Positions 10,820 through 53,907 of a stretch of 64,000 nt of DNA are shown here, piece after piece; position 1 is the stretch's first letter, and each line of letters starts with the position of its first letter. The notes below the pieces were generated by a model. It was not told the DNA's origin. It made no database searches and saw nothing but the letters and a program-made list of their open reading frames with translations. The stretch covers positions 4,285,760-4,349,759 of the forward strand of contig CAJINV010000006.1 of the NCBI GenBank assembly GCA_905178155.1, read 5' to 3'. The stretch is from Amoebophrya sp. A120 (taxonomy: Eukaryota; Protista; Dinoflagellata). Made by a program: the position numbers and the translations under genes.

Positions 10820-13800
10820 AATGACGGCTCGGACAACCGTTTCCGTTTCTCCTCCTCGCGAAACCAAAGCGAACGAAGTTCGCGCTGCAGGAGAGAAAGC
10901 AACGCCCTTTCCGGCGGGTGGACCTCATGCTGTGGAAGAAAAAACCACCGTACTTGAGCCGAAAGTTTACGAATTGACACTACCTACAACTGCGTCCGCT
11001 TTCAGCAAGAAAAAATCCGGTGCGAGCTGCAACGACAGCACCAGCAGACCGTACCAAGCCATCCTCCGCGTGTCCAACGTTGGCGCACGGTATAACCTGC
11101 TCAGGTGTTACAATCTCAACCGTTGAAATAGAGTCTGAGACTTGTTTTGCACGATGAGCATGACAGACTCGCAGAGCGTTCCACTTTCTGCAATACAAAT
11201 CTCGCCGGATTGTAGTGGGGTTTGGGGCTCCCGCTGCGGAACTTGTCATGCGCATTTTATGAGAGTTGGCTAGATCATGCGCTCTTGCATTCTATTCGTA
11301 ACGTTTGAAATTGTAACACCTGAGCGAGTTATACACGGATTCTGGACCTTCTAGTGGAAGACAGAAACGGCGACCTGGTGGACGTGGCGGTGGGGCACGA
11401 AGATTTTTTGGAAATATCAAATGCAAATACGTCTGGGTCCTCTGGAAGAGGGCAAACTTCTCATGCAAATTTTCCATGCCCCATGAGGTTTGGAATGCAG
11501 GACCTAGCATGACAGGTTCATCTGCGACATCATCTCTATCATGCCTATCCTGCATGACAAACTGCCTCTAAACTTGTACAAAAGAGGACAGCTTTTGCTA
11601 GTCCTGCAACACAAATTTATGTACGGTCCAGACTTAGCATGACAAGTTCGCGCCATCCCAGACCCAGACATGGTTGCAATGCATAGGAAAAGGCGAAGAA
11701 CCATTTCAGAAGGACTCAGAACCCTCGTACCACGAGAACCGCAGAAGGAGCCACGGCTGGTGGTGCTAGTAGTGGCTCTTCTACAACTTCTACCTCTAAT
11801 TTCGACCTCCACTCCGACTACCAAATGCAAAAATGTCTGGGTCTGGAACTTGTCATGCTGTTTTTGATTCGAGAAAAATTTGTATTGCGTGACCAGCAAG
11901 GGGGTCCAGTTTGTGCTACGCAGACAGGGCATTTCTCATGCGGAAGGTGCATCAGGAAGCCCTCTAAAAGTCTCTGATGCTAGGTCATACATTACAGGCA
12001 CCATGGGCCATGAGAAATATGCATGACAAATCTTGCATCCTTCCAGACCCAGACATATTTGCAATCCATACCGATTACTTTGGCGCAACGTGCGGCCGCG
12101 TCGCGAACCGCATTTTTGAAGGGAAATACCTTGATGTATTGAAAGGAAAAATCCCCCCTCACCATACCGAAAAGGTACACTCTTGGGAAATTTGTGATGC
12201 TGATTTGTGGTCACAAATCGTGTCTGTCTTGCAAGAAGGCAACTCCAGAGACAACCGCCACACTGTGCAGACGATTTGTCATGCTGTTGGGCCTGCAGCG
12301 CGGACGTTTTTCATGCTAAGCGCCTAAGCCCGAACCCTTCTACTCGCCCTTGGTATGGGCCTGCAGTGCTCTCCAGCAAGACAGCGCGGATTTGTGTACA
12401 CAAATTCAATTGAGCATCAGAAGTCTCGTTTTGATTTGGGGAGGGGGGGCGTTTCTTTTGGATATGATGACAGTATGGATTGTCACCGGCCGGAGGTGGT
12501 GGAACTGACGAAGAACGAGGAGCGGGTAGACGAGCGAGCAACAGGGAACGACGAGAGGATGAAAAACCGCCCGCATTACTATTTCGGGCACCTGCACGGG
12601 GGAAAGCGTGGCTTTCACGCCGTGGTTTGGGAAGAAGTGGTGGACGATCACGATTCGCCGGAAACTCAAGAACAGAATGGTCCGTCCTCGTGCCGGACAA
12701 AAATTACCTTCAAGCGTCTGAGCGAGGACGGCGAGGAAGGGTACCCTGTGCAAAAGTATCGTACTCGTATTGCAATCATGCATTTTACAAATCGTTTTGT
12801 TAAGGCAAATCCGCATTATTCTCATGCTGAGGAACTTTGTATTGCATTTCTACGAGTGCGATACATTTGCAAGTCATCAAGGGTACCCGGGGGCGGTGTT
12901 GTGCTTCGTGACCTACGAGTTGGCGGCGGTTACTCATGGAAAGGCCGATGCAGAAGCTTGTCTGAGCGAGATCGAGAAGGATAAAAAGAGCCAGCAAGAA
13001 GAAGAAACAACGAGTAGCGTGGTCAGCGTCTCCATCTCCTACCATGCGGAGCTTGTGAACGACGGTAGAAGAGTATCAACATCTGCTGGCTCAGTGAATT
13101 ATAAGCGGAGAAAGAACAACAAGGAAATCAACCTAAAAACCCCGATCAACCTGACTAACCACATCTTCTTCAACTTGTCCAAAAGCCACGACGAAAGTGT
13201 GCTGGGTCACGAACTGCAGCTGTCGGCGGATACTTACTATCAAGTGCAAAAATGTCTGCGTCTGGAAAAGTGTAAACTTGTCATGCAGATTTTTTATGAT
13301 CCATGAGGTCTGGAATGCAGGACCTAGCGTGACAGACTCCGCGAGGTCTATGCCTATCCTGCATGAGAAAACTCCATCCTAACTTGGTCAAACGTGGACA
13401 GCTTTTGGTACTCATGCAACACAAATTTTTACATGATTCAGATTTACCATGACAAGTTGCCACCTTCCAGACCCAGACACTTCTGCATTTGATACTTACC
13501 TCCCTGTGAATCCGGTCTCCCTCGTGCCGACCGGTATCAAGTACAAATATGTCTGGGTCTGGAAGATCATTGCGAGGTTTGTCATGCTAGTCTGGTGGCA
13601 TAACTCGGGAGTCTGTGAAGATGCATAGACACGAAAAGATCCTCTTACCTGCCATGCGAAAAGAACGCAGTTTGCCATGCGGAAGACGAAACACATTAGC
13701 AGCTCAAAAAACTTGTCATGCGCGGCGGCGTATCTGCCTATAGTTGATTTTTAGCATAATTACATCCTTCCACACCCTCCAGACATATTTGCAATGCATA

Positions 13801-14851
13801 GCCGGGGAGAGAAAACCAGTTGCCGGCACGGACTTTGACTTTCGTAAATTGCGGAAAATCGAGAAGCCAGGCCTGTACGACCACTGTTTTTGCTTGAACA
13901 TGAGAAATGTGGCCGCTGTCGCTGGGTCCACTCTTGCACATGCGGACGGACAAGCGCCTGTGCCTCTTTCTGGTCCAGTTGCAGCCACTACTTCAAGAAT
14001 CTCAGTTACTCCGAAAATAGATACCCACACCGCGCAAGATGAACAAGCCCCTCGTGGAGCAGCTGATCCACCACCAAGTGCGGTTTTGAAAAACGGGAAA
14101 AGTGGGATAGAGTTGCAAGTTTTCACGGACCAGGAAGGGTTGCAGGTGTACACGGGAAATTTTCTGCAAGATTTCCGCGGGAAGAAGAACCAAATCAGCC
14201 AGCCGGGGTGTGCGGTGTGCTTGGAATGCCAGCGCTTTCCGAACTCTGTGAACCTGTTTCGTGAAATATCCTGAGCAAAAACGTCCCCACACCAGAGTCA
14301 AGATGGGAAATCCGCTACACAAATCAACTAGCTTTGGTTGTTTCACATGACAAGTTTGCCCGCGCAGTGTAATCCTGTTGAGCTAGTGCAGCAGCGTCAC
14401 AGATCTAGCGCATGACGCTGATTGGAGCATGACAAGTTCCAAAACGCGACTAGAAAATGCTTGCCATGGGACTCCGCATGAGCAATATCTTCAGCATGCA
14501 GAATTGCATGACAGCTCTGGGGTGGGGACTTTTTTACTCAGAATATGAAAATTTCGAATGCGAAGATCCGTTCCTGAAGGTGGGCGAAAAATTATTACAC
14601 TGCACAACTCCCCCTCCCCCTCATTTGTTATGCAAAATACCAGATCCAGGCTGTGCCTCTTGGCACTACTTGCATGGCAAACTCCGGAAGCCCGAACAGT
14701 ACTACACTCCTGGGCAAATTTGTCATGCAAAACCGGCATTCTTGCTGAAGCTTGTAGTGCCGTTCATGCTATACAAATGAGGGGGAGGGGGAGTTGTGCA
14801 CTGTGATAAAAGTACGAAAAGAGAATTGAGTTCCGCTTTTCGACGTTTTGA
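10820..14851 (+). CDS. GALM: Aldose 1-epimerase (galactose mutarotase); 9 introner introns
   Basis: Elements removed: 11091-11333, 11415-11685, 11819-12070, 12137-12464, 12742-12878, 13238-13494, 13535-13800, 14267-14545, 14593-14808, each plus one TSD. The protein then shows the GalM motifs in order: GARILDL, YFGATCGRVANRI, HLHGGKRGF, DGEEGYPG, TPINLTNH.FFNL, YLPV..SLVPTG, TDFDFR, YDHCF, LQVYTGNFL, CLECQRFPNSVN, GEKY...FRF*. Confidence 0.95.
11091..11333. mobile_element. Singleton introner (TIR TATAAC..GCTCAGGTGTTACAAT); other singleton or rare TIR types at 2654, 2939, 3246, 19062, 44149, 44739, 51528, 51811, 55590, 59663
   Basis: TSD CACGG/CACGG. Removal rebuilds GARILDL of GalM. Confidence 0.88.
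14267..14545. mobile_element. Introner family E representative (mostly about 280-300 bp; TIR TATCCTGAG.AAAAACGTCCCCAC)
   Basis: TSD TGAAA/TGAAA. Also 16180, 19967, 23231, 31802, 35787, 53629, 57471 and 61139. Confidence 0.9.
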
Positions 14852-15577: not shown

Positions 15578-16642
15578 ATGTACAATCACCGTAGCGCCCT
15601 TGGTACGCTGAATCAGCAGTCAAAGCTGGTGGACTTGACCCTGAAGCGCGCGGACCGCGGTCGGTACCTCGTGAAGATAAACGAAGACTTGGACGTCATT
15701 TGCAACACCAAATCCTACGCTTACGCCGCAATCGCAAACGCCTCCCCTGCTACTACTTCGCGCCACGGGCCCGCCGGCTACTCGTCCGGTACAGCGACCC
15801 AATCGCGGGCCGAAGCGGAGAGCCGACGAGTCCGGTATCAAGTGCAAAAATGTCTGGGTCTGGGAGAGCCAAACTTGTGATGCTGCATTTGGATGCTAAA
15901 AAAACCTGTAGTGCATGACCAGGAAGAGGATTCAAATTTGGCTACGTGGAGAGGGCATTTGTCATGCTGAATGCGCATAGATAAGCACTCAAAAAATCTG
16001 TGATGCTATGGCATACATCACAGACATCATGGATCATGGAAAATGTGCATGACAAAGTTGTGCTCTTCCAGACCCAGACATTTTTACATTTGATATCCGG
16101 CCCCACGGGGCGATCGCCCGGTGCGAACGGATGCTGGCCAAGTTGCGGAAGATGCACGGGGAAGTGACGCAGAGGATACTATCCTGAGAAGTAAAAGCGT
16201 CCCCATCCAATAATCAAGTTGGCAAATCTGCAACACAAATCTCCGAGTTTTGGCTGTCGAGCATCAAAAGTTTGGGCTCGTAGTCGTGTAGCAGTCCTGT
16301 CTAGCTAGTGCAGCCGCATGACAAATTGACTCTCTTATCCCGCTTCCAGCATGACAAACTCCCAGATAGCATTAGGAAATGACTGTTATGGGGCTCCGCA
16401 TGAGAAAAATTTTGAGCATGCAGATTTGCATTACAGCTATGGAGTGGGGGCGCTTTTACATGGGATAGATACTGCTGTTGGATTTAGACTCTTCATTCTC
16501 GGACCGGAGCCATGGCAGTAGTGGTCACAGCTCCTCTGCGGACCGAAACAAGATTCAGCTCGCGGAAAAGGAATTGCTCGCGAAAATTTATGAGAAAATC
16601 CAAATTGCCGAGAAAGAACTACTGTGCCTGGTGGCGGGGTAG
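15578..16642 (+). CDS. Hypothetical protein (about 170 aa); 2 introner introns
   Basis: The frame stays open after removing 15836-16095 (TSD TCCGG) and 16180-16467 (TSD GATAC). It ends ...KIQIAEKELLCLVAG* (TAG 16640-16642). Confidence 0.7.
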
Positions 16643-18658: not shown

Positions 18659-21600
18659 ATGTCGGAGTTTTTCGACCTTCGCAGAAGGAACCTTCTGGAG
18701 GACTACTTCTGGACCCTGCAACAGGCGAACGACCAGGAGCCAAAGGAGCGGGCAGCGGCCATAAAACTCCAGTCCTTCTACCGAGCGTCGAACGTCAGGG
18801 AAAGATGGCACGCGGTGCATTTTGCCGGGCTGTTTATCCAGCGAGTAGCAAGGGGAATGCTGGGGAGGCGTATAAAGATTTAGTCGATCTTGTTGATGCG
18901 GTCTTTCTTTTGCGTAGCTAGTCAATGTGTGTGAAACTGAATGAAAGTGAAACTATGGCAGGTGGTGTTAGTAGTTTTGCAGCGGGTTTGTGAAATGCAA
19001 AATCTGAACACGAAGAAAAATATCACATTGTACACTTCATCAGTGCGAGCGAAGGCGCAGATATGGAAAGAAAAAAGTTCGTCATGTTCACCACTTTGCA
19101 GGTTTTGCATACCAAATTATTCTTCTAGCTCTATTCTTGTATTGCACAAAGGACACAAGGGAAGATATAGTCGTGTAATTCGACGACTGTGATGGATGTC
19201 TACGCTTGACAAAACAGTTGTGTATTGCAAAAATGCGCAGGACGAACTTTTTTTTGTTTGATAGCAGATGATTAAACGAGTGCAGGAAATGAACATGAAC
19301 TACTTCAACCACTGCGCAGCAACGGTATAGGTTTTGTGTAGCAAGTGTTTGCATGACAAGTTTCTTTGTGTAGCAGGTTCTGCAGGACAAGTTTGGTCAT
19401 ATAGATTTTTCTTGTTTAGCAGGTGTTTGCATGACAAATTCAATTTCTTTCAAAGTCACCTTTGTTTGTGATGCGGCATTTTTCGAATTTACAATGTGGT
19501 AGCTGCTGTTATCTGAAAAATTTAAACCAATTTATCCCAGATACAAAAAGTTTTTCGAGGGTACTGGAGCAGACAATACACGCACTGCATGCTATGCTAC
19601 AGCAAAATCTACTTTGTGCCGCAAGTCTTCTTCAAGGCTGTTTCTGTCATGCTGCACTGGTATGAAAAAGATGATTGGATATTAGTGTCGTAGTGACGAT
19701 GGTAGTACGACACGTAGGAGGTACTAGCGGCAACCACGCCCATGTTGCTAGGTCGATTTCGACCTGGGTCGTGGACCTTCCAGGGGTGCCCGTTGACGGA
19801 CCTCCATGCCGAGGGTCGAACCGCCGTCGAGGTCCTCTTGCATGGCAGGTACTTACGCCGTAAACGCGTACTACTTACTCAAGAAATGATCACTGGCAAC
19901 ACAAATTTGCACCTTGGCGCGTGGTTTTTGCTGGGATAGACGCACAGCAGAAAAAAGTTTCTCTCCTATCCAAAGTAAAATAAACGTCCCCGCCCCATAG
20001 TCGATGAGTGGGATGTCTGCAACACAAATCCAGAAGGATTGGGAAGTACTAACTAAGTACGCATACCATGTGTTTTTCGCTGCGTTGTAGTGCAGGTTGG
20101 CAAGGAGGATACAGTCGCATCACAGAGCCATCCCTCTATCCTGAAGTTGCAGAAAAACATGATTTGAAGAGCCTCTCGTGGAGATGCACTTGCAGATTAA
20201 AAGCGTTCTTCGGGAGGTAATTGCAAATCTGCATGACAACTGTGGGATGGGGACGTTTTTGCTCAGGATATCTCCAACGTCCAAACGGTCGGGCAGAAGA
20301 CAAACAAGTATAAAGAACGTCTTGTTTTTCTTGCTTATTCTCGTTTTCGCATGAGAAATTCCCCCTACTAACTTCTTCCACGCTCGCTATTCCAAGGTCT
20401 GCATGAGAATAAACCTCCAATTTTTGAATTCGAAAATGCACCCACAGCTGGCTGCAAAGTTACGAGAACGAGAAGCAGGCGGAGCACCTATTACAATGAA
20501 AAATGCCCCCACCCCAGATCTTGGCAGCGTTTGTATTATTGCAAACCTTTCCAATGGTAACACTCCCCGTCTTGCATATCTCAGCATCGCAAATTGGCCA
20601 TGCTGAATAGCTAAAATTTGTGTTGCAAAGGAGCGCAACAGCAGCCGGATCTGTTATGCGCAAGACACCTTGCTCACCGAGACTCTGCATCAGAAAGGCT
20701 CGCAATCCTTCCATGCAGGACAGAAAGCTTTCATTTGGAAACTTTGCATGACAAACCTTGTTTGCAAATTCCGGGTTGGGGGCATTTTTCATTGTCATAG
20801 CACCAGAAGAAAATGGAGGAGGATAGAAAGACCACCTTCAATATCACAAGAAATATATCCTGTGCAAAAGTATCGTACTCGTATAAATGCAAGTCCTGCA
20901 CTACAAATCCTTTTCTCAAGGTAAATCCGCATTGCAAATTTTATTTCTCATGCTGAGGGAATTTGTAATGCATTTATACGAGTGCGATGCTTTTGCAATT
21001 CATAAAATAAGAGTGTCAAGAACTACGACCTCAACAGACGTTGTGATGCTCACCAACAAGCGCATCCAGAACCAAGCCCGCAACTGAACGAATTTGTATC
21101 CTCCATAGCATAGCATGCATGGTTATCATCATAAGCAAAATTTGTCCTGCCTGACTCGTCCGATGATGATGTGTGAAAACTCAAACTGTTGATCGTCAAA
21201 CACTTCTTCATTTCTGGTCGATATTCAACAAGCTGGCGAGTCAGTTGCACCACCTGGTCTCCACGCAGAAAATATGAGAGTGCACAATTCCCCCTCGTTC
21301 TCATAATTTCTGATGCAAAACAGGAATTCCATTCATTGCCTGTGGTCAGTACTATGCATCACAAGTTGTAGTTCCAGGACCGGAAAGGGAAACAGCGTTG
21401 AAAATAGCCGTCAATTTGTCCTCGCATCAAAAGCTGCATATGATTTGCCAGAGCTTGTGTTGCTGTGGATGCTATCCAAATGAGGGGGATGGGGAGAAGT
21501 TGTGCACTGTCATAGAAAATACCTGGCGTTTACAACCCGCCGTACTCAGAAGCGTTGCCGACCGCGTTCAATATACCGATAGAGGTAAGATAGCATTTTT

Positions 21601-23508
21601 GCATAGTATGCAGACCCACGATTTCGATTTCGCATGGCACTTACCGCATTTGAATTCATCATGAGAGACTCAGATTTCTTGTGTTTGTTATGCCGTGAGG
21701 ACAATAAACGTTGACAGACAGCATAATTATGTTGAAATGAATTACAATTAAAATTATCACTATCAGCAACACCTGCGACTACAATCCACCGCGCGGATGC
21801 CAGCGAGTCTGAGGAGACCGAACTTGAATAGATCGATTACCAGCACAGTTAGGCCGCTGAACCACACAGAGAAGGGAACCACAGATGCAGGTATAGGAAG
21901 TTTTTTGGAAGTAGTTCTACTTATGCGTGTTATATATACATTGCCCTGTCGTGTAATATCTGTAAAACAAAGCGTGCTGTCTTTACCTGTATGATTTTCA
22001 GTTTTGCCACAATGACCATCCATCCTGATCCTGCATGACAGTTTTCTGCATGGTACTTGCGTACTAGTTGTGCATGACAACAAAAACAGCGAAAATCCGT
22101 GGTGGCCCACCGCAGCCAGTGGCGAAAAGAGTGCCGCTGGTCAGTCGCACTGCAAACGCCGGGAGAATGCAGGCAATACAAGGGCCATTTAGGACAAAGG
22201 ACCAAATCGACGTCTCGAACGCAAAAGCCTACGACCAGTATCGATTGTTGATAATAATGTTGCATAGTAGTACAACTATCACGAAGTCGATGCTCCTGTC
22301 AGATTTATTTTATGGCTCGCATCGTGACAAAATTGAATTTTGTGGTAGTCGCATGCTTATTGCGATGAAGCAGTGTCGTGTGCATTGATTTTGTTTGCGA
22401 AATTGAAAATTTGAATTGCGCACTATCAGGAACCGTTCCGTCCAAGCATCCTCGTACTACCAAGTCGTGTATCAAATGTAAAAATGTCTGGTTCTGGGAA
22501 CTTGTGATGCTGGGTGGCGTCTCATGATGAGACTACAAATGCTGGCTCAGCATGACAAGTTTCTGGGCTCCTAGGTGTTGCCTATTCTGCATGACAAACT
22601 GCGCTTCTGCACCACAGAAAAACGGAGCTCTTGGGTAACGTGCATGACAGATTTAAGACTCATGCCAGACAAGCATGACAAACATGAATTCTTCCAGACC
22701 CAGACACTTTTACAGTTGATAGCGTGCAAGACACGAAGCGCATCGAGGGCCGGTTGTCAAAGATCACGAGGTTAGCGCCGGACGAGTTTGTCGCAAAGAG
22801 AAAGATCACATACGAGAAGATGAAGCCGACCGTGTCTGCAGAGTCGCGGTACCTCGACCGGCCGGTGGAGTTCTATTACAATGAAAAATGCCCCTTTCCC
22901 ATACTAAAACGGAAATCTGTGATGCGGGATTTGTGTACACAAATCCAATCTGTCCTGCAGTAGAGGACTGCAGGCAGATGCAGCGCCTGAGTGGGGGCGT
23001 TTTGCCGTAGGCGCCTAGCAAGGCAGGCATGTCCTCTGTAGGCGATAAGGCATTACAAAGCGCCTGCGAGACGCGGTCGATTCTCTGGCTTTGCCCTTTT
23101 GCAATACAGGGACGATGTGTGGCCACAAATCAGCATCACAAATTTTGGTATGGGGAGGGGGAATTTTTCCTCACAATAAGTTCCGACAGGACTACACGGA
23201 GCTGCCCAAGATAAAGGACAAGCCGCCGTTTATCCTCCTGGAAGAACGTCCCTGCTACTTGTGCCCCAGATTTGTCATGCAAATTTGCATGCCAACCAGA
23301 GTAGTCCGCCAAAAGTTCTTGTCATGCGCTGCAAGAAAGAGACAAAAGTGCAACTTCTCTGATGCGGCAATGCCGCCATCTTGGCTATGGCTATGGGGTC
23401 GTGGGGACGCTTTTTCCGAGGATACCTCTTTTCACCGCTGTGCCGGGGGGTAAGATGCTCGCGGACTACGACGACGAGAAGTACATTCTCGGGGCCTTGC
23501 CGGTGTAG
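18659..23508 (+). CDS. SPATA17: IQ-motif protein, SPATA17-like; 9 introner introns (one carrying a nested element) and 6 predicted GT-AG introns
   Basis: Three IQ-type motifs (AAIKLQSFYRA, LFIQRVARGMLGR, AATIQKVFRGYWSR), then HSRKKFL, LHHLVSTQKIPGVYNPPY and QGPFRT, a layout I recognise as SPATA17-like. Introners: 19062-19263, 19593-19938, 19967-20270, 20489-20799, 20842-21223, 21273-21514, 22470-22721, 22874-23178, 23231-23424. GT-AG introns: 18870-19043, 19325-19540, 20308-20447, 21585-21766, 21891-22089, 22238-22429. Confidence 0.8.
20489..20799. mobile_element. Introner family G representative (about 310 bp; TIR TAT..CA.TGAAAAATGCCCCCACCCC)
   Basis: TSD GCACC/GCACC. Also 57810 and 63485. 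Confidence 0.9.
20856..21004. mobile_element. Family C element nested in the left TIR of an older introner (20842-21223)
   Basis: Inner TSD AAATA/AAATA, outer TSD TTCAA/TTCAA. Only removal of the whole outer element restores RKTTFNKLASQLHHLVST. Confidence 0.85.
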
Positions 23509-25380
23509 CCGGGCGTAGGGTTTTGTCCCGAGAAAGAAAAGGACTTCGCAAAAGTAGTGGAAAAAAAATCTGAATAGCAGAAAGAATTCTCAAATTCAAA
23601 GCCATTTTAATATCACTAGAAATCACAAAATCTGAATAGCAAATCAACTTCTTATCACAATGTTAATCTGAATAGCAAACAAATTTTTGTCTGATTTAGT
23701 CTTCAAATTCTACTATGAGACAGCACGGGAGGTGGTGGTATTTACAACGGTAATTGGCAAAGAGATACAAGAACTTACGGCCAAGAACCACTCCAAATCC
23801 CCTATGTGTCTGATTTAAGTCTTCAAATTCTACGAGCTTTTTGAGCGTTCGTCGAAAAAGCTGTTGCGTAAGTGCGTTGTCAACATCGGTCTTGCGCGTG
23901 GCCTTTCGACGACATCTTCTGTATTGCGAGTTTAGAGTAAAAAATCGAGGTAGTCGCGACAGCGACATTGAGAGATGAAAATGCTTTGTATATTAAAGTG
24001 AAAATAAGAATGCCGGGACGAGTTGATCTAGGAAGAGAAGGAGTAGATGGTCGTGTGGTACGAAGGAGCTGGCACCCGCTTGTGTCAACAGGAATTTTCA
24101 TGCGACTGTCCCTTAACGGCAAAAGCAAATTTGTTATCAAAAATATACACTTGTACATACAGCTGACGATGTAGTTCTAGTTCGAAATTCTGCTGCTCGG
24201 CAGCACAAAAGAAAAATCGCACCGAGAAGAGGAAGATCATCAGTCATGGCTGTTGGAACCTTCACTGAGGTTTCTCACCACTACGTTGCAGCTGTTCTGC
24301 TTCCGGATCCGGGCACAAAGGGTTGATGTCGTGCTGATGAGAGGGGTGTAAGAGTAGCGAACTGTTGGGAACTTTTCCTTTGTAATGTTGCAGTTCTGTT
24401 GAAATAAGCAAGTAAGTACAAGTAGACTAGTAAAAAACACCTACAACCGCGCTCCTACCCGCCGTCGTCCGGCGCTCGTCACAACATGAAAGCTGCTTGT
24501 TGTCCGCGAGAGTGCATTTCCAGTCGAGAAAATAAAACTGTTGTCTTGGTGCAGTTGCTGGAGAGATGAAGTTTTGATTTGATTTATGCATAGATACAGT
24601 TGATGTTGAATACGTTTCATTTTCGAAGATCCAGTGAAGATCAGCATCCAGAGAGAACAGGGTCCACAAGAAAGCCTATGCCGGCAAGAGATGTTGTTGG
24701 TCTTGGTTTTGCTCGCACGAAGATGGGCGCCGGGTGGATCAGGTCTGGACTCCGTTTAGATCTTCTAGGACTCATAGAGGACAATCTCGTTTATAGAACT
24801 ACGCAATGATCTTTTTATCACAGGCACAGACAGTAATTCATAGTAAACCACAACGACAAAGTTTCGTTTCGTAGCGACATAGTTTTAATGTTTTCGATAA
24901 AGTTCCTTTTTTGCAGCTTTCAGCGCGATTGTAGGTTGATATTTTTACGCTTTTCTTATTTTTTCTTGCACACAGCGAGCAGCTTCCGAGCGACATCATG
25001 CGCGAGAAGTCTGGCCTGCTCCGCTGACCCTTTCGCGCGGTCGCGTTGCCTGGACGAAAATGTCGCGAGTGGAGGAAGCAGCTTCTTTCGGGAGACCACG
25101 ACGCGGAGTTGTCACATAATTCCCTCCGGGAAAGGGAATGCTAGCGATTGCGGCCAGCCTTGCAAGATAACGGGATCATGCCAGCTCGCGACCATGGAGA
25201 AGCATTTTTACTTTAGCCGTAGTTGTTTCCGAGAACATTACTGAAATTTCAGACAAGTTCCATATCCATTCCATTTGCACTTGATGGTCATCTTTCGCAG
25301 CACTGACTGTGGTCCCACTCGGTGTAAAGATGAATTGCAAAAAAGAGCGGTAAAAAAATCACTTGAAACATCGCAAAAGA

Positions 25381-28300
25381 ATGGCTTCGAGCAGAAGTTC
25401 GAGGATCACGCCGATGAACGCTGAGAGTATGGTCCAGGACGACCCGAACCCAGAAGTCGCGGCACCGCAGGGTGTGCCGTCGGAGGAACAGCAGCCCGTG
25501 CCGCAGAAGCCCGTGCCGCAGCAGCCGGTCCCGCAGCAGCCGGTCCCGCAGCAGCCGGTTTCGCAGTATAATCAAGTCAACGTGCTGCAAAACTCGAACA
25601 TAGAAGCCCTGGGCGGCAAAACCGACTGCTTCGGCGGCTTGCCGGGGGGACGACACCAAAGTAGCTTGCCGGGGGGACGACACCAAAGTAGCTTGCCGGG
25701 GGGACGACACCAAAGTAGCTTGCCGGGGGGACGACACCAAAGTAGCTTGCCGGGGAGACACCAAAATAGCTTGCCATCTGGTTCGAACCTTTTTCCACCA
25801 AATGGAATGGTACTCGACATCAACCAGCACGGTTTACTCCAGCCTGCCGGTGGACCGGGAGGTGCTCACACTGGTCCCCAAGTACCGGCACCCCTATTTT
25901 TCCCCGGAAATAACAATACCCTCCCACTGCAGCCGCCTCTTCCTGCTCCCGGGGGCGGGCCCCTTCTGTTTCCCCCGCCTGGCGGGCACAACATATTAGG
26001 GGGAGCGATGTTTGAATCCTCGTCTCAGCTGTTTCATCCTCCGAATCGCAAGATGAACTACCTCCGCAGCGACGAACATTATTCGCGAGGAAAAAATAAA
26101 CAGACCGCGGCGATGTCCTCGAGCAGTACTTCTTCTAAAGCCCACCCCCTCCAGTTTTCCGCCGCAAAACGGCGGATGGATGCGATCGTGGGCGAGACCG
26201 GCTATGCGTATGGGTCGGTTTTGACCGGAATCACGTCGACGTCGTTCACTTCTGACCTGGACTTGACGTATTGTATCGACTTCGATAGTAAAAATGGAAG
26301 TAACAGCACAAGCAACAAGAATAGCAACAGCAATAGCAATAGCAACACAAACACGACGTCTGACCAGCACCATCACGTTGACCCGACGAAGCAGCAGCGA
26401 CAGGGCGCTTTGGAGTGGTTGAAGCAGGTCGAGCAGAAACTACTCGATTTCAACCAGAAAACGGAGGAACAGTTCAAAAAAAAGCGATTTCAATACCCGA
26501 TCACGGAGTACCGAAACATCCAGTTTATCGCCGCCCGAGTGCCCTTATCCATTGCAAATATGTCTTGGTCTCCTGGAAGAATGCAAGTTTGTTATGCTTG
26601 TCTGGCATGACGCTGAGGTCTGTATTGCGTGGGCACAAAGGGCTCCTCTAGGCTGTCATGCAAAAACGCTGTTTCTCATGCGGAATACGAAACACAGAGC
26701 CGCTGAAAAATTTCTCATGCTTGGCGGTGCATATACACTGTGCTTGCTATAATTCACTGACTTGCATCACAAGTTTCCAGACCCAGACATATTTGCAATG
26801 CATCGCCCTTACTAAAGTGCGAGGAGGTGCTGCTGTGCCAGAGAAGTAGTAGTAGAGATTACCCAGCAGAAGATGATAATGATTCAGATTCATCATCCCC
26901 AGCAGAAGTAGAACATATTTTTGAAACAAGAAGTCCTCCGACTTCTAAACCTTCCGATAAAAAATGTTCCAAATTCGCGTTCACGGAGCTGAAAACCACG
27001 GAGATCGAGATCACAGTGAACAACAAGGACGCCGTGAAGAATTCCGTGCTGCTGCAGCAATACGCAACCAGTCCGTTCTGCAAGGCGCTGTGTCTGCGGG
27101 TGAAAAAGTGGGCGAAAGAGAACAAGTTGATTCGGGACATGACGAACGGGCTCTTGTCCTCCTACAGCTTCACACTGATTGCGATCGCGTTTATGCAACA
27201 GGAAAATTTTCTCCCCAACCTCCAAGAGGAAACTTACACCGAGTTAATTCACCAACTCGGCCACCCGAACTGGCACTGGGACACGGTTGGCCGGGAAAAA
27301 ATTTACCGGAGAAAGTGCGACGAGCTGCTGGCGCAGGGGAAAATTCTCGAAATGCAGAGGGTGTTGTTTCGCGAAAAGAAGCACGATGAGAAGTTCGCGG
27401 AGGAATGCGGGGAGGGCTTGATACATGGTTTGCACGGCGCCGATTACAACGAGCGTTTTGAAAATCAAAATGAAAATTACGCCGAGGACTTCGAATCGTT
27501 GAAAGATCCGGGTGCGAAAAGGTGTTTTTCCTACGCGATGCAGGAAATCGAGGAAAGATTCTTCCAGTTTCTGGACGACCGATTTGTCAAAATGGGGTTT
27601 GTGCCGAAAATGGTGGACGAGGGAGGTGGTTGTGCCACACTACCGGAGCCGGAGACAAAGGAGGAGCAGGAAATGTTGAAGCGGGAGGAAAATTATAAAG
27701 CTGATGATGACCACCTAATCCCGGAGGAGTTGAACGCCAGCACCAACAGTGGGCGAAGCTGCAAAACTATCAAATGCAAATATGTCTGGGTCTGGAAGAA
27801 TGCAGATTTTTGTCATGCTGTTTGTGCATGATACAGAAGGTCTGGCATGGAAGCCCTAGCATCACAGGTCTCGAGAAGGTTCCGCAATGCCTGACTCGCA
27901 TGAGAAATCCCCCATTTTGGTGACACGAAATGGGTATCCTTTGCTGCCTATGCATGACAGATTTGTGTGTGCTATGAAATGCGCATCACAAGTTCGAAAC
28001 CTTCCAGACCCAGACATATTTGCAGTGCATAGAAACACCCTCGCCCTCCAAACAGTCTACGTCGAAGAAATCTTTTCCCTCTGCTACTGAGATGGACCAA
28101 AGTGGTCGCGATCAGGAGCTTCCGGATAGTTCTTCATCTCGCTGTGACACGATTTTCAGTGTCCGGAAGGGGGGGTTGTTAAGCTTGACAGAAGAGGAAA
28201 CCATTCTGCACAGTTCTTTGGATGCCGTATGGGTCGCAAGTATGTCTGGGTCTGGAGGATTCCGAGACTTGTCATGCAGTTTTTCCAGGCTCCGCCAAGG

Positions 28301-31300
28301 CTGGAATGCAGGGCACAGCATCACAGGTTCTGCAGCCCCTTGGTGAAGATGCCTATTCTGCATGAGAAATGCCCAGGTATTGGCAGAGGCTAAATCTGTT
28401 CTAACGCCAACCCGCCAGGAGTCAAATGGTTACTACTGCTACTACAGCATGGCCAGAAGTGGGGACCTTCTGCAAGTCATGCAACACAGATTTTTGTATG
28501 ATCCGCAACACGCACGACAGGTTCGCAACATCCTTCCAGACCCAGACATTTTTGCAGTTGATATGCCGACACCCGGCACAAAATCGCCACCATCGCGGTC
28601 GAGGACCCGTATGCGTTTGAAGATCCCCACGGCCGTATGCATTGCAAATATGTCTGGGTCCTCTCTGGAAGATCTGAAATTTGTATTGCTGATTTCGCAT
28701 GTTGACCCTGAACTCTGTGATGCATGTTGTGGAAAATAAGCGCCAACCCTGTGTCATGCAGAAACGCGATTTCTAGTACGGGTGGCGCACAACACAACCG
28801 CTCAGAAATTTCTCATGCGTGGCTAAGTATTGGAATCAGTTTGTAATGCATGTATTAGCAGTACAAGTTTACTCCACTTCCAGACCCAGACAGAGTTCCA
28901 CTGGATAGGCCGGCCCGCCGAGCAAAACCCCTCGCCGCGGCGGCAACTGTCGCACAATTTGAAATATGGATTGCAAATATTTCTGGGTCTGGAAGGTTGG
29001 AACTTGTAATGCTAGCTTTCCATACCTAGATATCTGTATTGCATAGCCAACAAAACTCGCAGCCTCTTTTGTACATGCAAAAACGCAGTTTCTCATGCGA
29101 TTGCCTATGAGAGAGCGTTCTCGAAAGTTGTCATGCTGGGTTGCATTCGGAACTGGTTCCATCATCCACATTTTAGCATCACAAGTTTCCAGACCCAGAC
29201 ATTTTTGCATTTGATGTGAAACGGCGAGTGCTGCGGTGCGCGAAAATTTCTGGCGTGGAACTGATTGCGAAGGCGGTGCGGGTGAGGCTGATAGACCTGA
29301 AGTTGCAGCGGGAAAGCAGCGGTTGTCATTGGTTCTTGTCGAAGACGAAGAGTGGCGGGACAACTACCACGGATTTACTCAAAACAGACCTGCACGCGTT
29401 GGTGAAACACGCGGCGAGGGAGGAGCGGAGAAGGTTTAAGAACCTCCAATCGCTTTTGCTCATGCGGAGTCAACTACAGCTAGTAGAACAGGAGCCGAAC
29501 AACTTGAATAGTACGATGCTCTTGTCGCCGGCAGAGCAGTTACAGTTTGGCGGCTTGGGAGGATTTGGAGGTGGCCTGCTGGGTAGTACCAATTGTGTCG
29601 ATCCTAGTTCACTACTCCCGGGGCTGACCAACCTCAACTTGCTGCAAGATCATGGCGGGAGGTGGAGTACCAACAACAATAATGACGGTGACACGATAAG
29701 TGCGCCGCCAACATCAAATTCTCCAGCAAGACCATGGGATTTTTTGCTGCAGACGCATCAGACATCCAAGCCAGATGGTGTTCTTCACACGGCTGCACCA
29801 GTGCAGTTTCTTCCTGAGCAAGCCACGGAAGCAGGGGGGTCAACGAGTTGTAGTAGTATCAGTGCTGGGACAGGGACCTCCACAGCGCCCAAGAAAAACT
29901 ACGGCGCATGTGAAGAACAAAAACAACAACCGAAACTCGTCTCGCTGGAATCGACTCTGGGGCTCTTGTCGCCGCGTGGTGGTGTTCCTGCAAAAATAAA
30001 CGCGGAAAAAATGAAGAACAAGGCATCTTCTTCTTCGCAGGTGAGTACCAGCCGGTACGAACAGGATTTGGCTGTTGCGTCTTCTACTGGAGTTGTTTTC
30101 TCCTCTACGACTAGTAGGTCTGGTGCACAGGTTGGCGGCACGGAGGACCATAGTACCAGCGCGCAATCGATTATATCAGCAGGTGTTTTTAACAGGAGCT
30201 CGACTTCAATGGAGGTGCCACTGCCATGCGTTCAAATTCAAAATCAGAATCCGGCGAAGAAGATTCCATCGCAAGAACACAAATCTACTTCCGACGACCT
30301 GTTTCAGAACCTGCCCTCCGGACTGCGGTGCCAGGGGATGGGAAAATCGGAGCATATGAAATGCAAAAATGTCTGGGTCTGGAAGACTTGTCATGCACAT
30401 TTTGCATGACCCATGACGCCTGTAATGCATGACCCAGCATCAGAGATTTGGTGAGGGCTTTGTGATGCCTATACTGCATGAGGAATACCCCCTCCGCGTA
30501 GCAGAAACTGGAATCCGTTCGCTGCTTACGCAATACAGATCTTTTTTAGAACCCAAAGACAGCATGAGAAGTTGCATCCTTCCAGACCCAGACATTTTTG
30601 CATTGGATAGAGCAGAGGAAGTTGCAAAAGTACAACGCGATCTCGGCAAAGTATTACAATGAAAAATGCCTCCTCCCCATATCAAAACGGAAATCTGTGA
30701 TGCAGATTTGTGGTCACAAATCAGCTTTGTCATGCTAGAAGGCAAAAGATGCGGACTGTAGTGCTGTCTAGCGTAGGAATAAACCTATGCGTCTCCAGCA
30801 TGACAGGAGGCAACTAGACAAGTGGGAAACAGCATGACAGATTACCTGCAATTTAGGCCGCAGCTTCGTCGCTTGGCCTTCTAGCAATACAAGTCGATTT
30901 GTGTACTCAAATACAGCATCACAAATTTGCGCATCTTCCGTTTCCGATATGGGGTGGGGGCTTTTTTCACTTTGATACAAAGTGCAGTACTTTGCAGGAG
31001 GACCGGGAACTGCTGAAGCGGCAGTTAAGTCGGGATCTGGCGGAGCTGAAGAGCCGGGCAAGTTCGAATAATAATAATGCCACTACAACAACAGCTGCAA
31101 CTGTAGTACTCCCCGTCCTTGCAGAAGAAGAAACTTCTACGAGGGGAGTAGAAGAAGCAGAACGACCAAGAAAGGCTTGCACAACTTTTTCCACTATACT
31201 GGATGCCAGTTGCGCAACATCTGCCGGTACTACTTCAGCCTTCTTTGCGGAAACGACGAACACCACTGCAGCAGACTTTGCTGCCTCTGCTGGTCTGATG

Positions 31301-34300
31301 CCACCTCCAGGCACCACTTCAAGTTCAACCGATGAACGCGATGGGCCGCCGCGAGAAGTACTAGAGCAGGCGACAGTAGAAAGCTCTTCTTCTGGTCTAG
31401 AAGCAGCTTCAACACCAAGCACGGAAGTTGTTGTAGATGTGGACATTATGTGCAAAGTCAGGGAGAATAATTACGCGCTCATGACTTGTTCCGGAGTTGC
31501 AGGTTCTGCAACACAAACAGGCGGCAGTTCTTCCTCCTCCTCTGCCGACGTTTCCGTGGTGCTGCAGCCTGAAGGGGGGCAAAAAACTTGTGAGAAAAAG
31601 AAGGAACAACACCAGCAAGAACCTGGGACGGCGGAGGAACAAGAGCGCGTGGGAAAACAACTAAACGAGCAGTCAAGTACTTCAAATAAACTCCAGCCCT
31701 CGCAGTCTGTCCCAGGTCGTTGTTCCACTAGCAAGGTCGAGAAAACAGGAACAACTTGCTCCGAGCAGAATCTACTGTATAAAAGTTCATCATCCGGTCC
31801 CTATCCTGAGTAAAAACGTCCCCACACCTGAGTCAAGATGGGGATTTTGCAACACAAACCTAGGAGTTTTGGGAGTTACGCATGACAAATTGCACTCCGC
31901 AGTGTAGTGCAGGTTAGCAAGGGCAGCCGCATCACAAATTCGTCTGCTCATCCTGTTCACAGCATCACAAATTCCAAAACACGATTGGAAATGGCTCTCA
32001 TGGGGATGCGCATTACAAGTCTTCCTGTCTTTGCAAATCTGCATTACAACTCTGGCGTGGGTACGTTTTTGCACAGGATGCTCCCCTTGTCCCAATCTAC
32101 CCCGGGCAGGAGCAACTGCAGGAGAAGTTCCTCTATCCATTGCAAAAGTATCGCACTCGTCGTAATCGCAGATATGCATTACAAAGCTCTCTCTCAAGGC
32201 AAATCCGCATTACAAATTCCATTTCTAATGCTGAGCAAATTTGTGATGCGATTTCTATCAATACGATGTTTTTGCAGTTCATATCCTCAACCTGAAAGCA
32301 ACGATCGAAGCTTTGCAAGAAGAAACGGGAAGTTATTGGCAGAGGAAGCTCGCGGGCAGTAAAATAGGAGCGGATGCTCAAAAAGATGAAGAAATACTAC
32401 ACCTAAACGACCTGCGTGAAAACAGTCCGGGATACAAGGATTACCGGGCAAAAATGAAGGAGCTGAACAGGAAACAAGCAGAGTACCAAACTTGGGTTAT
32501 CAAATGCAAAAGTGCCTGGGTCTGGAAGATTCTAAACTTGTGATGCTGTCTCTGGATTCGAAAAAAAATTGTATTGCATGACCAGTAGGAGGAGTAGATT
32601 TTGTGCTCCGCGGAGATGGCGTTTGTCATGGGGAATAGGCATGAGGAGGCGCTCTAAACATCTGTGATGCTAGGCCATGCATCACAGGCATTATGGATCA
32701 TGCAAAATATGCATGACAAATCTTGCAATCTCCCAGACCCAGACATTTTTGCATTTGATATGGGTTCAGTACAAGCAAAAGCTCGATAATTTGCGTCTCG
32801 TAGGGAAAACAAGCCGTGATGACGCTACTGGTAATGCTGCATTACAAGAACCGCCTCAACAAATTCAAGAAGGAGCAACTCAAGAACCGCAAGCGCATTT
32901 ACTCCGGACCACCAGCGCCGAGAGTTCTTCGTGCACGAGTACGATTTCCGCTGGCAGATTCCACCTTGGTCAACAGGTTTCTGGTGCCCAACAGAACTTG
33001 CAGCAGCAACAGCAGCAGAACGTATCAACTGCAAAAATGTCTGGGTCTGGAAAAGTGTAAACTTGTCATGCAGATTTTCCATGACCCATGAGGCCTGGAA
33101 TGCGGGACTTAGCATGACAGACTCTGCGAAGTCTCTGCCATGCCTCTTCTGCATGAGAAACTCCCTTCCAACTTGGTCAAAAGTGGACAGCTTTTGGCAC
33201 TCATGCAACACAGATTTTTGCATGCTTCAGATTTACCATGACAAGTTGCCGCCTTCCAGACCCAGACATATTTGCAACTGATAGAACGCGGCTCTGTACC
33301 AGTTGCTGCAGCAGCAGTACCAGCAACATATCCTGTGCAAAAGTATCGTACTCGTATTGCAATCATGCATTACAAATCTGTCTCTTAAGGTAAATCAGCA
33401 TTACAAATTTTATCTCTCATGCTGAGGAAATTTGTAATGCATTTATACGAGTGCGATACTTTTGCAATGTATACAACAGCAACAGCAGCAAATGGTGTTT
33501 AATCAGCAGCGGATCCAGCTGCAACAGCAGCAGCAGCAGTACCACCAGGCAGAGGTCAGTTTGAATTGGAAACACCAGCAATTTTTGGAGCAACAGAAGG
33601 TCTTATCCCACGAAAAAACTGTTTGACTGTGATGACTTTGCAAGATCTGCATCACAAGTTTCTTACACATAACGCAGAAAATTTGGCATGCGCGCTTGCA
33701 AAGGGAAAACGCCCTTAAAGAGTCAAGCTCTTGCAGGTGTAGCAAGACAAATAGTTCTGTGTTCCATTCTATGCATCACAAGTTCACAGTGAAGCAGTTT
33801 TTTCTTGCGATAGGTCTTACTGCAGCAAGAACGGGAGGAGTTGGAAAAGCAAAAGGAGAAGGAGCGGGAGCTACTGGAGGAAAAACTGAAAAGAGAATTC
33901 CAGTATCAAATGCACATATGTCTCGGTCTGGAAAGTTGCAATGCTGGGATGTGAAGAACAGTCAATACCCTGCACTGCACAGCAGAGCATGAGAAATATG
34001 TGCGCGGCTGTAGTGTTGCGCTTTCCGCATGAGAAGCTGCGTTTTTGCATGACAAGCAACAGAGTCTCTTCTTGGACACGCATCACAAGTTTTTCTGTCA
34101 TGCCAGACAAGCATGGCACACCTTGCGTCCTTCCAGACCCAGACATATTTGCAATCCATATCCAGGAGGAAAAGACAAAGCTGATGTCCTCCTTTAGCTC
34201 CATGCTAAAGGCTATCAAATGCAAAAATGTCTGGGTCTGGAAGAATGCATGTTTGTCATGCTTGTCTGGCATGACTCGAGAATCTGTGTTGCATAGGCAC

Positions 34301-37166
34301 GAAAGAGCCCTGCTAACTGTCATGCGAAAAGGCAGTTTGCCATGCGGAATACGTAAGACATGGCAGCCACTAAATTTGTCATGCATAGCTGCGTACTGCG
34401 GCGCGTCTATCATTCACTTTTAGCATTACAAGTGTCCAGACCCAGACATTTTTGCATTTGATAAAGGCAAACGCAGAGAAAAAAAGGAAAGAAAAGAGGA
34501 AGAAGGAACAAGAAAATAATTATTCGGTCGTGGATCAAGGACAGCCACAGCCGGGAGAAGTCGTGGGCGACAAGGCGATAGAGACGGTGGTATCCACTCT
34601 TGCAAATATGTCTGGGTCTGGATGATTGCGAGGTTTGTCATGCAGTTTTTCCGAGCTCCACAGGGTCGGGAATGCGGGGCTTGGCAATACAGGTTCTAGA
34701 GCCCCTCGATGATGCTTATTCTGCATGAGAAATTCCCCACCAGCAGGGCAAGAAGTTGGCAATTTTTGCAAGTCATGCAACACAGATTTATTTCGTGTGA
34801 GCCACAAGAGGCATGACAAGTTCACTCTTTCCCAGAGGACCCAGACGTATTTGCAGTTGATAGGTGGGAGTAGAAAGCAAATCGCAGTGCTCTTCAGGTG
34901 GAAGTAGGAATGGTCTGGATAACAGTAGCATGCTCGCAGATTCCTCCAATATAATTCGGTCGCCAACCGAAACGGCGACGGCTGCGGATAATTTTACAGG
35001 GCTGAATTACAGTTATGTGGAGCAAGAGAGCACTAATTTCCTGAACCTATCTGTCCCGAGCGTGAAACCCGATGCGCTTCTTGACGATTCGTTTTCGTCC
35101 ACTCGAGGTGAGTTATTTGCTGGTGTTGTTTCTCCTCCACTAGTGCATCACCACGACTACACGAATTTTTACCCTAGAAGTTGTACAACCGCCACCCCGC
35201 CGCCGATCGGGGGAAGTAATATCCCGACGAACGACGCCAGCGGTAGTTCCTCGAGTAAGACCAGCGCGACCACTGTTGAAGACCAGGGTGCTACTAGTAG
35301 TGCCTCGACATCATCTGCGTGTCCTGCAACCACCACCACCAAACTGCCTCTGCAACAAGGTAGTGAAGCCGTCCGGAATTATCCACCCTACCCGGAGTTT
35401 GGGCACGAGGATTTTTCGGTGAGCTACGACACCATCGGGGACTACAGCTACATATGGATTGCAAAAATCTCTGGGTCTGGAAGAATGCAGGAGTTTGTCA
35501 TGCAGATTTTGCATAACCCATGAGGCCTGTGATGCATGCCCCAGCATCAGAGATTTTGCGAGGGCTTTCTGATGCTCATACCGCATGAGAAATGCCCTCT
35601 CCGCGTGGCACAAATTACACCTCTTTTGCTGTTCATGCAATACAGATTTTATGTAGAGTCCAAAGGTAGCATCACAAGTTGCATCCTTCCAGACCCAGAC
35701 ATTTTTGCAGTTGATACTACATGGAGAAGTACCACTACTACGATGCGCGGTACGGGTACGAAACGAGTGAGCAGCAAGAAAAGCGGTATTCTGAACAAAA
35801 ACGTCGCCACCCTAGAGTCAAGTTGGGAACCCGGCAATACAAGTCCAGGAGTTTTTGGAGTCGCGCATGACAAGTTTTTGTCTGTATTATAGCGCAAGTG
35901 ACTAGCAAGGACAAGCGCATCATAAATCCATCTGCTCACTCTTTTCACAGCAGTATAAATGCCAAAAAATCAAGACTAGAAATTTATGCCTCTCATGGGG
36001 AAGATGCGCAATGCAAGCGTTTTCCTGTAATTGCAAATCCGCATGACAACTTCGGGGTGGGGACGGTTTTCCTCAGGATAAGCGGTCGCAGCAGATCCGG
36101 GAGAGTTTGCGGAGGGAGATATCGGAAGGAAAAATCCCCCCTCCCCATAAGAAAGGGAAACTTGCGATGCTGGATTTGTGTACACAAATCAGCCTTGTAT
36201 TGCAGGAAGGCATTGCGTCCAGATCCCCAGTCTAGGTAGGGGCGTTTGGGTCTAGGTGTTCAGCATTACAAGCGGCTGCCCTGTAGGCCCAACAACATGA
36301 CAAATCGCTTCAATAATGGGACGCAAGCATCTGCCCTTGTCTTCTTGCAAGACAAATGTGATTTGTGACTACAAATCAGCAACAGAAATTTTCGGAAATA
36401 TGGGGAGGGGGGATTTTTCCTCACAATAGGAGAAGATGCAGGAGATGGAATCCGCGTCGGGACAAGGGGGTGTTGGTGCAGCTATTTTTATGCATTGCAA
36501 ATATCCCTGGATGTCTACGAACTTGTGATGCTGAGTGGCGATGAGTGAGCATACTCGTGAGTGGAGCGCAGCATGCCAAATTCTGAGGACGCTTTCTGAC
36601 GCATAATGCGCATTAGAAACTATGCTTTTGCGTGACAAAACGGGGCTTGTTTTTGTTAGTTATGCAATACAGATTTTAGTTTTACAGGAATCTACGACAC
36701 ACAATAGATACAGGTTCCACTTTTATTCCAGACCCAGACATGTTTGCAATGCATAGCCATGATGCCGAAACAAGATCGAGATGATCCTCACGGTGCGCCT
36801 GGATACTTCTACGACTTTTACGCTCAAGAAATTAGCGCGCCGCAGCCTTTGGATGACGAGGATGAATTTGGAAAAGACCACGGTATTAGAAGAAAAACTA
36901 CGACGAGTTCTTGTTCTTCAGGCGCTTGTGAAGATGATGTTGTTCGTCCGGATATTAATTTTTACCTGCAACACGAATATGAGCGTTTTTATAGAAGTAC
37001 AACACCTCGTGACCACGACGAGCCATCTTCATCACGCGGGGCGGGCAAAAACAGTGGAGACCACACTACCACACCTAGTACGAAGATATCTTCTGGACGA
37101 ACATCAGCCGCGCTGGTGTCTAAGAAGGAGAAAAAGGCTGCAAAGGAGAAGAAAAGCAAGAAATGA
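25381..37166 (+). CDS. Cid1/TUT-family non-canonical poly(A)/terminal uridylyl transferase with long Q/S/T-rich and coiled-coil extensions; 20 introner introns
   Basis: Motifs YGS...SDLDL, ARVPLLKC, EITVNN..AVKNS.LL..Y, VKKWAK, LSSYSFTLIAIAFMQ and IAVEDPY. The frame is continuous to TGA 37164-37166 after removing 26546-26804, 27768-28031, 28228-28563, 28636-28907, 28965-29216, 30355-30609, 30652-30977, 31802-32080, 32134-32283, 32498-32760, 33023-33283, 33329-33473, 33604-33812, 33904-34160, 34213-34463, 34591-34862, 35453-35716, 35787-36080, 36120-36428, 36486-36755. Confidence 0.85.
25489..25560 (+). repeat. Coding 15-bp tandem repeat (QQPVP) x about 4.5
   Basis: Repeated CAGCAGCC(C/G)GT(G/C)CCG units are visible in the sequence. 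Confidence 0.85.
25637..25776 (+). repeat. Coding 27-bp tandem repeat (LPGGRHQSS) x about 5
   Basis: GCTTGCCGGGGGGACGACACCAAAGTA occurs in four exact copies plus one degenerate copy. Confidence 0.9.
33329..33473. mobile_element. Introner family C representative (about 135-165 bp; TIR TAT-N7-AAAAG(T/C)ATCG(T/C)ACTCGTA)
   Basis: TSD CAACA/CAACA. Also 12742, 20856 (nested), 32134, 46185, 56902, 57205 and 58711. Confidence 0.9.
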
Positions 37167-53628: not shown

Positions 53629-53907
53629 TATCCTGAGCAAAAATGTACCCACCCCAGAGTTGTCATGCAGATTTGCAGCTACAGGGAGATTTGTAATGCG
53701 CATCCACATGAGAGGCGTTTCCAATCGCGTTTTGCGCTTTGTAATGCTGTCGACAGGATGAGAAGATGGATTTGTGTTGCGGCTGTACTTGCTAAACTGC
53801 ACTACAATACAGAGACGAACTTGTCATGCTGGACCCCCAAAACTTCTCGATTTGTGTTGCGAGATCCCCAGCTTGACTCTGGTGTGGGGACGTTTTTACA
53901 TAGAATA
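53629..53907. mobile_element. Family E element about 170 bp downstream of the protease stop codon (probable 3' UTR)
   Basis: TSD AGCGG/AGCGG and family E TIRs. Confidence 0.85.

Follow-up and report, generated by a model that had tools for sequence, protein, structure and literature searches.

Introners of Amoebophrya sp. A120 lying in both orientations, and a candidate splice code following the direction of transcription

Host genes and elements in the window

Amoebophrya is a parasitic marine dinoflagellate. The window, that is, the whole stretch of 64,000 nucleotides analysed, belongs to Amoebophrya sp. A120, three exon queries being 98–100% identical to annotated A120 proteins. The initial annotation placed all host genes on the + strand, and after removal of the element and one repeat copy, 84 of the 85 elements were indeed located in + strand ORFs of at least 90 aa; in ORFs of at least 150 aa, 78 elements were counted on the + strand versus 28 on the − strand. 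Element 53629 lies 3′ of a stop, the ORF ending at 53458. Three annotated A120 proteins (P0001, P0002, and P0058) map on the + strand and fit removal of element plus 5 nt at 19, 9, and 8 elements, respectively, including 22470, 55727, and 58937, and exon pieces match the aldose epimerase, aspartyl protease, and EF-hand families. The host genes are as follows.

10821..14848, + strand: aldose 1-epimerase gene, P0002, with 9 elements
18659..23505, + strand: host gene of element 22470, P0058, 389 aa, IQ-motif Pfam entry, six GT-AG introns plus elements
25354..37163, + strand: ORF of 2175 aa that becomes open once 20 elements, some in each orientation, are removed
45818..53458, + strand: aspartyl protease ORF, with 10 elements and one 3.7-kb GT-AG intron
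55092..63997, + strand, continuing past the window: EF-hand protein gene, P0001, with 19 elements

Removal of element plus 5 nt opened long + strand frames, one of 2175 aa across 20 elements; with removals off by one or two letters, the longest frame was at most 554 aa. Removal lengths of element plus 2 or plus 8 keep the frame equally but misfit the contigs and the annotated proteins, and were rejected. The scanned pieces of the 2175-aa ORF had no Pfam match, and Rfam and tRNA scans of the window gave no match.

Several other features were observed among the host genes. The 3.7-kb GT-AG intron 46477-50182 (from a loose end at 50183) holds a near-identical tandem pair of about 1.3 kb, in which a 273-aa frame matches no Pfam family. 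The stretch 39123-40784, which is without elements, is an uninterrupted 554-aa ORF with DUF285 repeats. P0059, an unnamed 103-aa protein and the only fragment found for the protein of the first gene, is 82% like the exon 3661-3900; at a point without an element in the window, it departs from the frame and runs into residues resembling a translated element end, a hint, from sequence comparison, that there may be a strain-specific insertion.

The 85 elements, together with two nested ones, make up 36% of the window bases, have a median length of about 260 bp, and carry inverted TAT...ATA ends flanked by a 5-bp target-site repeat. When elements were called by inverted ends alone, an exact 5-bp repeat flanked 44 of 67 in the window and 261 of 362 in outside loci, and a 6-bp repeat flanked none (0/67 and 0/362, respectively). 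The same calling yielded 0–2 elements in shuffled windows versus 67 in the real one, and the element set is thus not due to chance. The wider set comprises 193 further elements from 132 metagenome loci with the same end motif, whose best matches are 67–96% alike and whose host strand was deduced from ORFs and codon use. The end consensus of 277 elements is TAT at 97–100% and A at 86–92% at positions 11–13, in a calling that itself required TAT-like ends. The end motif was not found in viral contigs.

Farhat et al. (2021; PMC7789003) described 29,850 introner copies in A120, with ends of TAT, 7 nt, and AAA and with direct repeats of 3–5 nt. The elements of the window lie in the A120 genome, end in TAT, 7 nt, and at least three A, and are flanked by a short direct repeat; furthermore, they are repeated, occupy non-GT-AG sites, and are absent from transcript-like contigs. 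Organism, ends, direct repeats, repeated families, non-GT-AG sites, and RNA support are thus the same as in the parts of that report compared here, and the window elements are these already described transposon-like introners, a known class.

Orientation and transposon nature of the elements

The elements compared for orientation are listed below; X4, X5, and X7 are transcript-like runs.

22465..22469, + strand: left target-site repeat of element 22470, with 4 of 5 letters equal to the right copy, 22722-22726
22470..22721: element of 252 bp with TAT...ATA ends; inferred intron 22469-22725
58937..59188: partner of 22470 in opposite orientation, repeat 5/5 alike; X5 and X7 contigs skip 257 nt (252 + 5)
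30652..30977: element within the 2175-aa ORF
55727..56054: partner of 30652 in opposite orientation, in the P0001 gene
2202..2464: family A copy, opposite to 15836 and 45863
15836..16095: family A copy
35453..35716: family A copy; missing from an X4 contig, as are 35787, 36120, and 36489
42581..42845: family A copy
45863..46124: family A copy, towards the 5′ end of the aspartyl protease ORF
61460..63140: family A element into which a 1412-bp TAT...ATA element, 61575-62986, is nested; removal of 61460..63140 fits P0001

The orientations read in the initial annotation were reproduced. Element 22470-22721 is the near reverse complement of 58937-59188, with 233 of 252 columns matching, and 30652-30977 is that of 55727-56054, with 303 of 333. 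Both pairs are reverse-complementary over their whole length, interiors included: without the inverted ends, the interiors of 22470 and 58937 match at 168 of 182 columns as reverse complements versus 96 of 197 on the same strand. According to the positions of the motif quoted for family A, the copies 15836 and 45863 run the other way from 2202, 35453, and 42581. This motif is exact on the + strand only at 45970, within element 45863, and with up to three mismatches it is found at 11916, 15942, 32606, and 53156 on the + strand and at 2338, 30483, 35590, and 42718 on the − strand. All eight multi-member groups in the window hold both orientations with no inconsistent edge. Relative to the host, orientations in the largest families of the window and the 132 loci were 40:33, 17:23, 17:20, 15:7, and 9:7, and 2 of 13 families were nominally skewed (p = 0.03–0.04), which does not go beyond multiple testing. 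The families thus occur either way round without overall orientation bias and, with 84 of 85 elements in + strand ORFs, sit in coding sequence in both orientations, as initially noted.

Having inverted ends, a fixed-length duplication, either orientation, and no coding capacity, the elements are non-autonomous terminal-inverted-repeat (TIR) transposons of the MITE type; 70 of 85 have stops in each of the three frames. An inward-facing 9-mer lies near both ends, mostly 33–34 or 41–45 nt in, and is about 18 times denser inside elements than outside. Its spacing by one helical turn suggests a candidate DNA-binding site of a transposase. No transposase family was detected in the 61 long ORFs scanned out of 231 from outside loci. 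Long end-pairs in outside loci were considered as larger elements and set aside, since they resemble short elements that happen to lie on both sides of host exons. The 9-mer is also present in the GT-AG introns 19325-19540 and 21891-22089 of the P0058 gene, which may be decayed elements.

Three elements carry insertions. The nested element 61575-62986 is GC-rich, with ends 22/22 alike and a repeat 4/5 alike, and is uncovered in the transcript-like runs; its two ORFs have no Pfam match and encode no recognisable transposase. In element 20842-21223, another element, 20856-21004, breaks into the left end behind its first 14 nt, and the whole is removed in P0058. Element 52368-52949 is enlarged by about 370 bp of inserted sequence, which contains telomere-like repeats and has a 15-bp direct repeat on either side; this element is removed exactly in all four transcript-like runs.

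Removal from transcripts and its register

The transcript-like runs X4, X5, X7, and X8, from one sample and presumed to be RNA, skip a GT-AG intron and leave the silent 1.4-kb stretch 61615-62991 uncovered, and thus behave as processed mRNA. Fourteen of the 15 joints listed are elements, each skipped by its length plus 5 nt, and with 14 more joints beyond those listed the number of element joints is at least 14. Exact length arithmetic on contig records (158, 652, and 412 nt) accounts for the removal of 15 further elements, and two other record-length checks match after one boundary element is subtracted. For example, 35453, 35787, 36120, and 36489 are removed jointly in the X4 contig (1312 − 1154 = 158 nt, as observed), and the 652 nt of X7 record 9 are matched exactly when nine elements, 55727 among them, are removed together. 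Element 53629..53907, in a likely 3′ UTR, is removed exactly, as a 284-nt skip in all four runs. For 30652, an X4 contig piece that starts at 30978 with 8 further letters partially supports removal, and for 22470 the annotated protein P0058 is the one source. Raw RNA of the same species label (X9) covers only element ends, not exons. Overall, the removals checked in transcript-like contigs equalled element plus 5 nt in 29 of 29 cases, so that one repeat's worth of sequence is left behind, and only 6 of 82 elements have any GY-AG register; the initial annotation was right on both points. Both orientations are removed in nine families; a single contig shows both in three cases (50663/52096, 56902/57205, and 60037/60350).

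Junctions at which the two 5-bp repeat copies differ show which copy's letters are kept. A register in which letters 1–4 come from the left repeat and letter 5 from the right (k = 4) fits all 14 informative junctions, of which eight come from contigs (four listed joints and four contig-piece boundaries) and six from annotated proteins, whereas the other registers fit at most 10 of 14 (k = 1, 9; k = 5, 8; k = 0, 5). Informative elements include the following.

23231..23424: left letters 3–4 kept, in P0058
36489..36755: repeats 1/5 alike; left letters 1–4 kept, contig piece beginning at 36760
50663..50887: left letters 1–4 kept, joint 50661-50892
51528..51735: left letters 1–2 kept, joint 51524-51738
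51811..52039: letter 5 from the right copy, joint 51805-52040, 4 letters fitting both sides
58711..58874: left letter 4 kept, joint 58709-58879

At 22470, P0058 keeps letter 1 of the left repeat copy. Five junctions, from different families and with no family represented in both orientations, can tell k = 4 from the mirror-image register k = 1; every one of them agrees with k = 4, for which the chance probability is 1 in 32. It is thus very likely that the intron is N-TAT...ATA-NNNN in the direction of the transcript, at one fixed register. The TIR-like intron 19593-19938, left out of the 14 informative junctions, fits no register: its annotated removal is 345 nt instead of 351, 6 nt shorter, which is either a result against the element-plus-5 rule or an annotation slip. 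The literature searched, which reached few subscription journals, yielded no report of a fixed register or of polar ends in Amoebophrya.

The end letters also differ with the direction of transcription. Under strand-symmetric calling, letters 1–2 of TAT were changed in 0 of 246 elements at the transcript-5′ end versus 10 of 246 at the 3′ end, counts that are small and for which the host strand outside the window was deduced from ORFs. For letter 1, there were no changes at the 5′ end versus seven at the 3′ end (p = 0.016), and for letter 2, three changes at the 3′ end, each breaking pairing. Changes of letter 3 (five at the 5′ end versus one at the 3′ end) and of the A at −7 (one versus five mirrored) were not significantly different. 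Under the k = 4 register, the invariant TA falls at +2/+3, the same place as in the host donors, as the host GT-AG introns begin with GTA in 8 of 8 and with GTAT in 6 of 8. The initial annotation took the occurrence of both orientations as an argument against polar splice signals. Because the register and the conserved letters follow the transcript and either-orientation introners are known elsewhere, this argument does not hold, and both orientations do not speak against a spliceosome.

The letters contributed by the target site looked free. G at +1 was found in 82 of 277 elements, no preference compared with 27.5% G in exons; a 3′-terminal AG in 20 of 277, as in the exon background; and neither a preferred pair of first and last letters (p = 0.49) nor a letter bias at any repeat position was detected among the 277 elements. 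The target sequence therefore contributes nothing, and co-option of GT-AG from the target-site repeat was not seen. The ends are predicted in silico to pair in 77 of 82 and 75 of 82 elements on the two strands, and the folding z-scores of the pair 22470 and 58937 are −4.4 and −8.2. Within the ends, G-U mismatches (201) are about as numerous as A-C mismatches (209), so that nothing points to selection on an RNA stem. The idea that removal is guided by a symmetric TIR stem or by a motif array thus stood in part: guidance by the symmetric end is supported, selection for wobble pairs in an RNA stem was not seen, and a transposase site is the likelier role of the motif array.

Routes of removal and known systems

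Ciliate internal eliminated sequences (IESs) are removed precisely, leaving one direct-repeat copy. Excision of the elements from DNA before transcription, as initially suggested by analogy with IESs, would account for the transposon-like ends, the single repeat copy left behind, and both orientations. However, X1 contigs, which are DNA-like with a flank depth of 42–51, continue for 22–66 nt inside elements and span 23231 completely, at single-copy depth, rather than ending at boundaries, and two of the X1 contig ends listed stop in exon sequence away from an element boundary. These contigs come from one sample, and contigs drop rare variants, so stage-specific empty sites could be missed. The transcript-like runs, moreover, hold element ends joined to other flanks and leave the silent stretch uncovered, and the cut register and conserved end letters follow transcription, to which a symmetric DNA enzyme would be blind. 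In the absence of a separate germline nucleus, excision from DNA would deprive a cell of the elements permanently, yet diverged copies persist. With DNA contigs that keep the elements, repeats of any 5-mer, and transcript-polar removal, the A120 elements differ from IESs; excision from DNA is most improbable, and the elements are very probably removed at the RNA level. An imprecise or template-switch-like removal, in which the single register would be an accident of few junctions, aligner choices, and annotation, is also highly improbable. Template switching is favoured by direct repeats at junctions. Such repeats are present here, and there is one exception, 19593-19938; the splice position relative to the hairpin is, moreover, called variable in the part of Farhat et al. 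(2021) compared. Against this, the frame of one ORF needs exact removal of 20 elements, all 29 checked removals equal element plus 5 nt, and a template switch would not change template between letters 4 and 5 every time.

For removal at the RNA level, a spliceosome or another enzyme may be considered. The missing +1 G, AG, and terminal pair count against an ordinary spliceosome, which uses all three. A non-spliceosomal enzyme might bind the paired ends, cut 1 nt before and 4 nt after the stem, and ligate the exons; pairing of the ends is predicted in silico for both strands, the splice sites show neither a dinucleotide nor a terminal-pair rule, Euglena uses short terminal pairing with spacers of 3 and 5–6 nt (PMC12501133), and U1 snRNA is given as not found in A120 (PMC7789003), in the portions of these papers compared. 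Nevertheless, G-U mismatches are no commoner than A-C, stem positions 4–7 are only 40–75% Watson–Crick, three pair-breaking changes of letter 2 are tolerated at the 3′ end while the 5′ TA is invariant, and this TA coincides with host donor +2/+3, so we regard such a stem-reading enzyme as possible but doubtful. A polar, sequence-reading non-spliceosomal enzyme could give the same pattern. Considering the invariant 5′ TA matching the host donor, the lack of any sign of RNA-stem selection, and the precedent of Fritillaria, a divergent spliceosome is favoured over a Euglena-like stem-and-ruler enzyme, and a spliceosome rather than another enzyme appears the fairly probable agent. We thus consider it somewhat probable that the introners are removed from pre-mRNA at a fixed register by a divergent spliceosome that reads the 5′ end as a donor.

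Each known system resembles the A120 elements in part. The passages of PMC7789003 compared pose the removal mechanism of A120's tens of thousands of non-GT-AG introns as an open question, and give a repeat of 3–5 nt with a variable splice position, whereas the present elements show 5 bp, one register, and transcript-polar conservation. Its orientation passages concern genes, not elements, and the text and supplement legends compared do not state element orientation. Gozashti (2022, 2025), in the parts compared, treats A120 introners without a register. In Polarella glacialis and Aureococcus anophagefferens, TIR-transposon introners occur in either orientation, as seen in part of Roy et al. (10.1101/2020.10.14.339549). 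As in A120, these transposons create introns either way round and leave one target-site copy; their GT/GC/GA and AG sites come from the element or the duplication and their orientation is often biased, whereas the A120 elements show no selection of such letters and are balanced. The either-orientation result for Aureococcus, reportedly that of Huff et al. (2016), is taken here from Roy et al.

Euglenid nonconventional introns likewise lack GT-AG, have terminal pairing at fixed spacer distances from the splice sites, and have a MITE-like origin (Nomura et al. 2025, PMC12501133; review PMC11282704, each in part). The spacers are 3 and 5–6 in euglenids versus 1 and 4 in A120, where pairing is predicted, and the motif differs: the A120 elements do not follow the N3-CDG/CH′G-N5-6 code with a purine at the exon start, the first letter of the next exon being a purine in 57% of cases versus a background of 55%. 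In Fritillaria borealis, a modified U2-type spliceosome handles MITE-derived non-GT-AG introns (PMC13326754, in part). Fritillaria keeps preferred end letters and U1, whereas in A120 the positions +1, −1, and −2 look free and U1 was given as not found. Compared with U2 spliceosomal introns, the A120 elements lack the +1 G and the 3′ AG, while U at +2 is conserved under the inferred register. IS3EU/GingerRoot DNA transposons share TA..TA termini, though their duplication is usually 6 bp in the part of PMC10045372 compared, and that of the A120 elements is 5 bp, with 6 bp absent from both sets counted above. In a related Amoebophrya strain, introns are canonical and U1 is present, according to the material compared, and the A120 system is thus lineage-restricted.

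Considering these comparisons, we propose the following scenario for removal by a divergent spliceosome. A transposase would insert the element, making the 5-bp duplication. In the transcript, the spliceosome would take as its donor the symmetric end that lies on the transcript-5′ side, the TA of the end occupying +2/+3 as in host GTA donors, and the 3′ copy would set the acceptor by distance, with the A at −7 as the candidate branch point; pairing of the ends would perhaps help removal. The 5′ cut would leave one letter ahead of TAT inside the intron, and the 3′ cut would take four letters beyond ATA; the copy kept in the mRNA would then have letters 1–4 from the left repeat and letter 5 from the right one. 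Since each symmetric end would carry both donor and acceptor signals, the orientation of the element would not matter.

The elements themselves and either-orientation introners elsewhere were known already; what is added here is the candidate splice code N-TAT...ATA-NNNN with a transcript-polar, donor-like TA. Together, the fixed register and this TA turn the open question of removal into concrete tests. Tentatively, the A120 splicing route may need no +1 G, AG, or terminal pair, one motif serving as donor and acceptor ruler. If so, any copy, anywhere and in either orientation, would be an instantly perfect intron, and the transposon, with no target-sequence need and no orientation cost, could colonise a third of coding regions harmlessly. 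If removal further proved to involve no lariat, nuclear mRNA would have a second splicing chemistry, one that evolved separately from that of euglenids.
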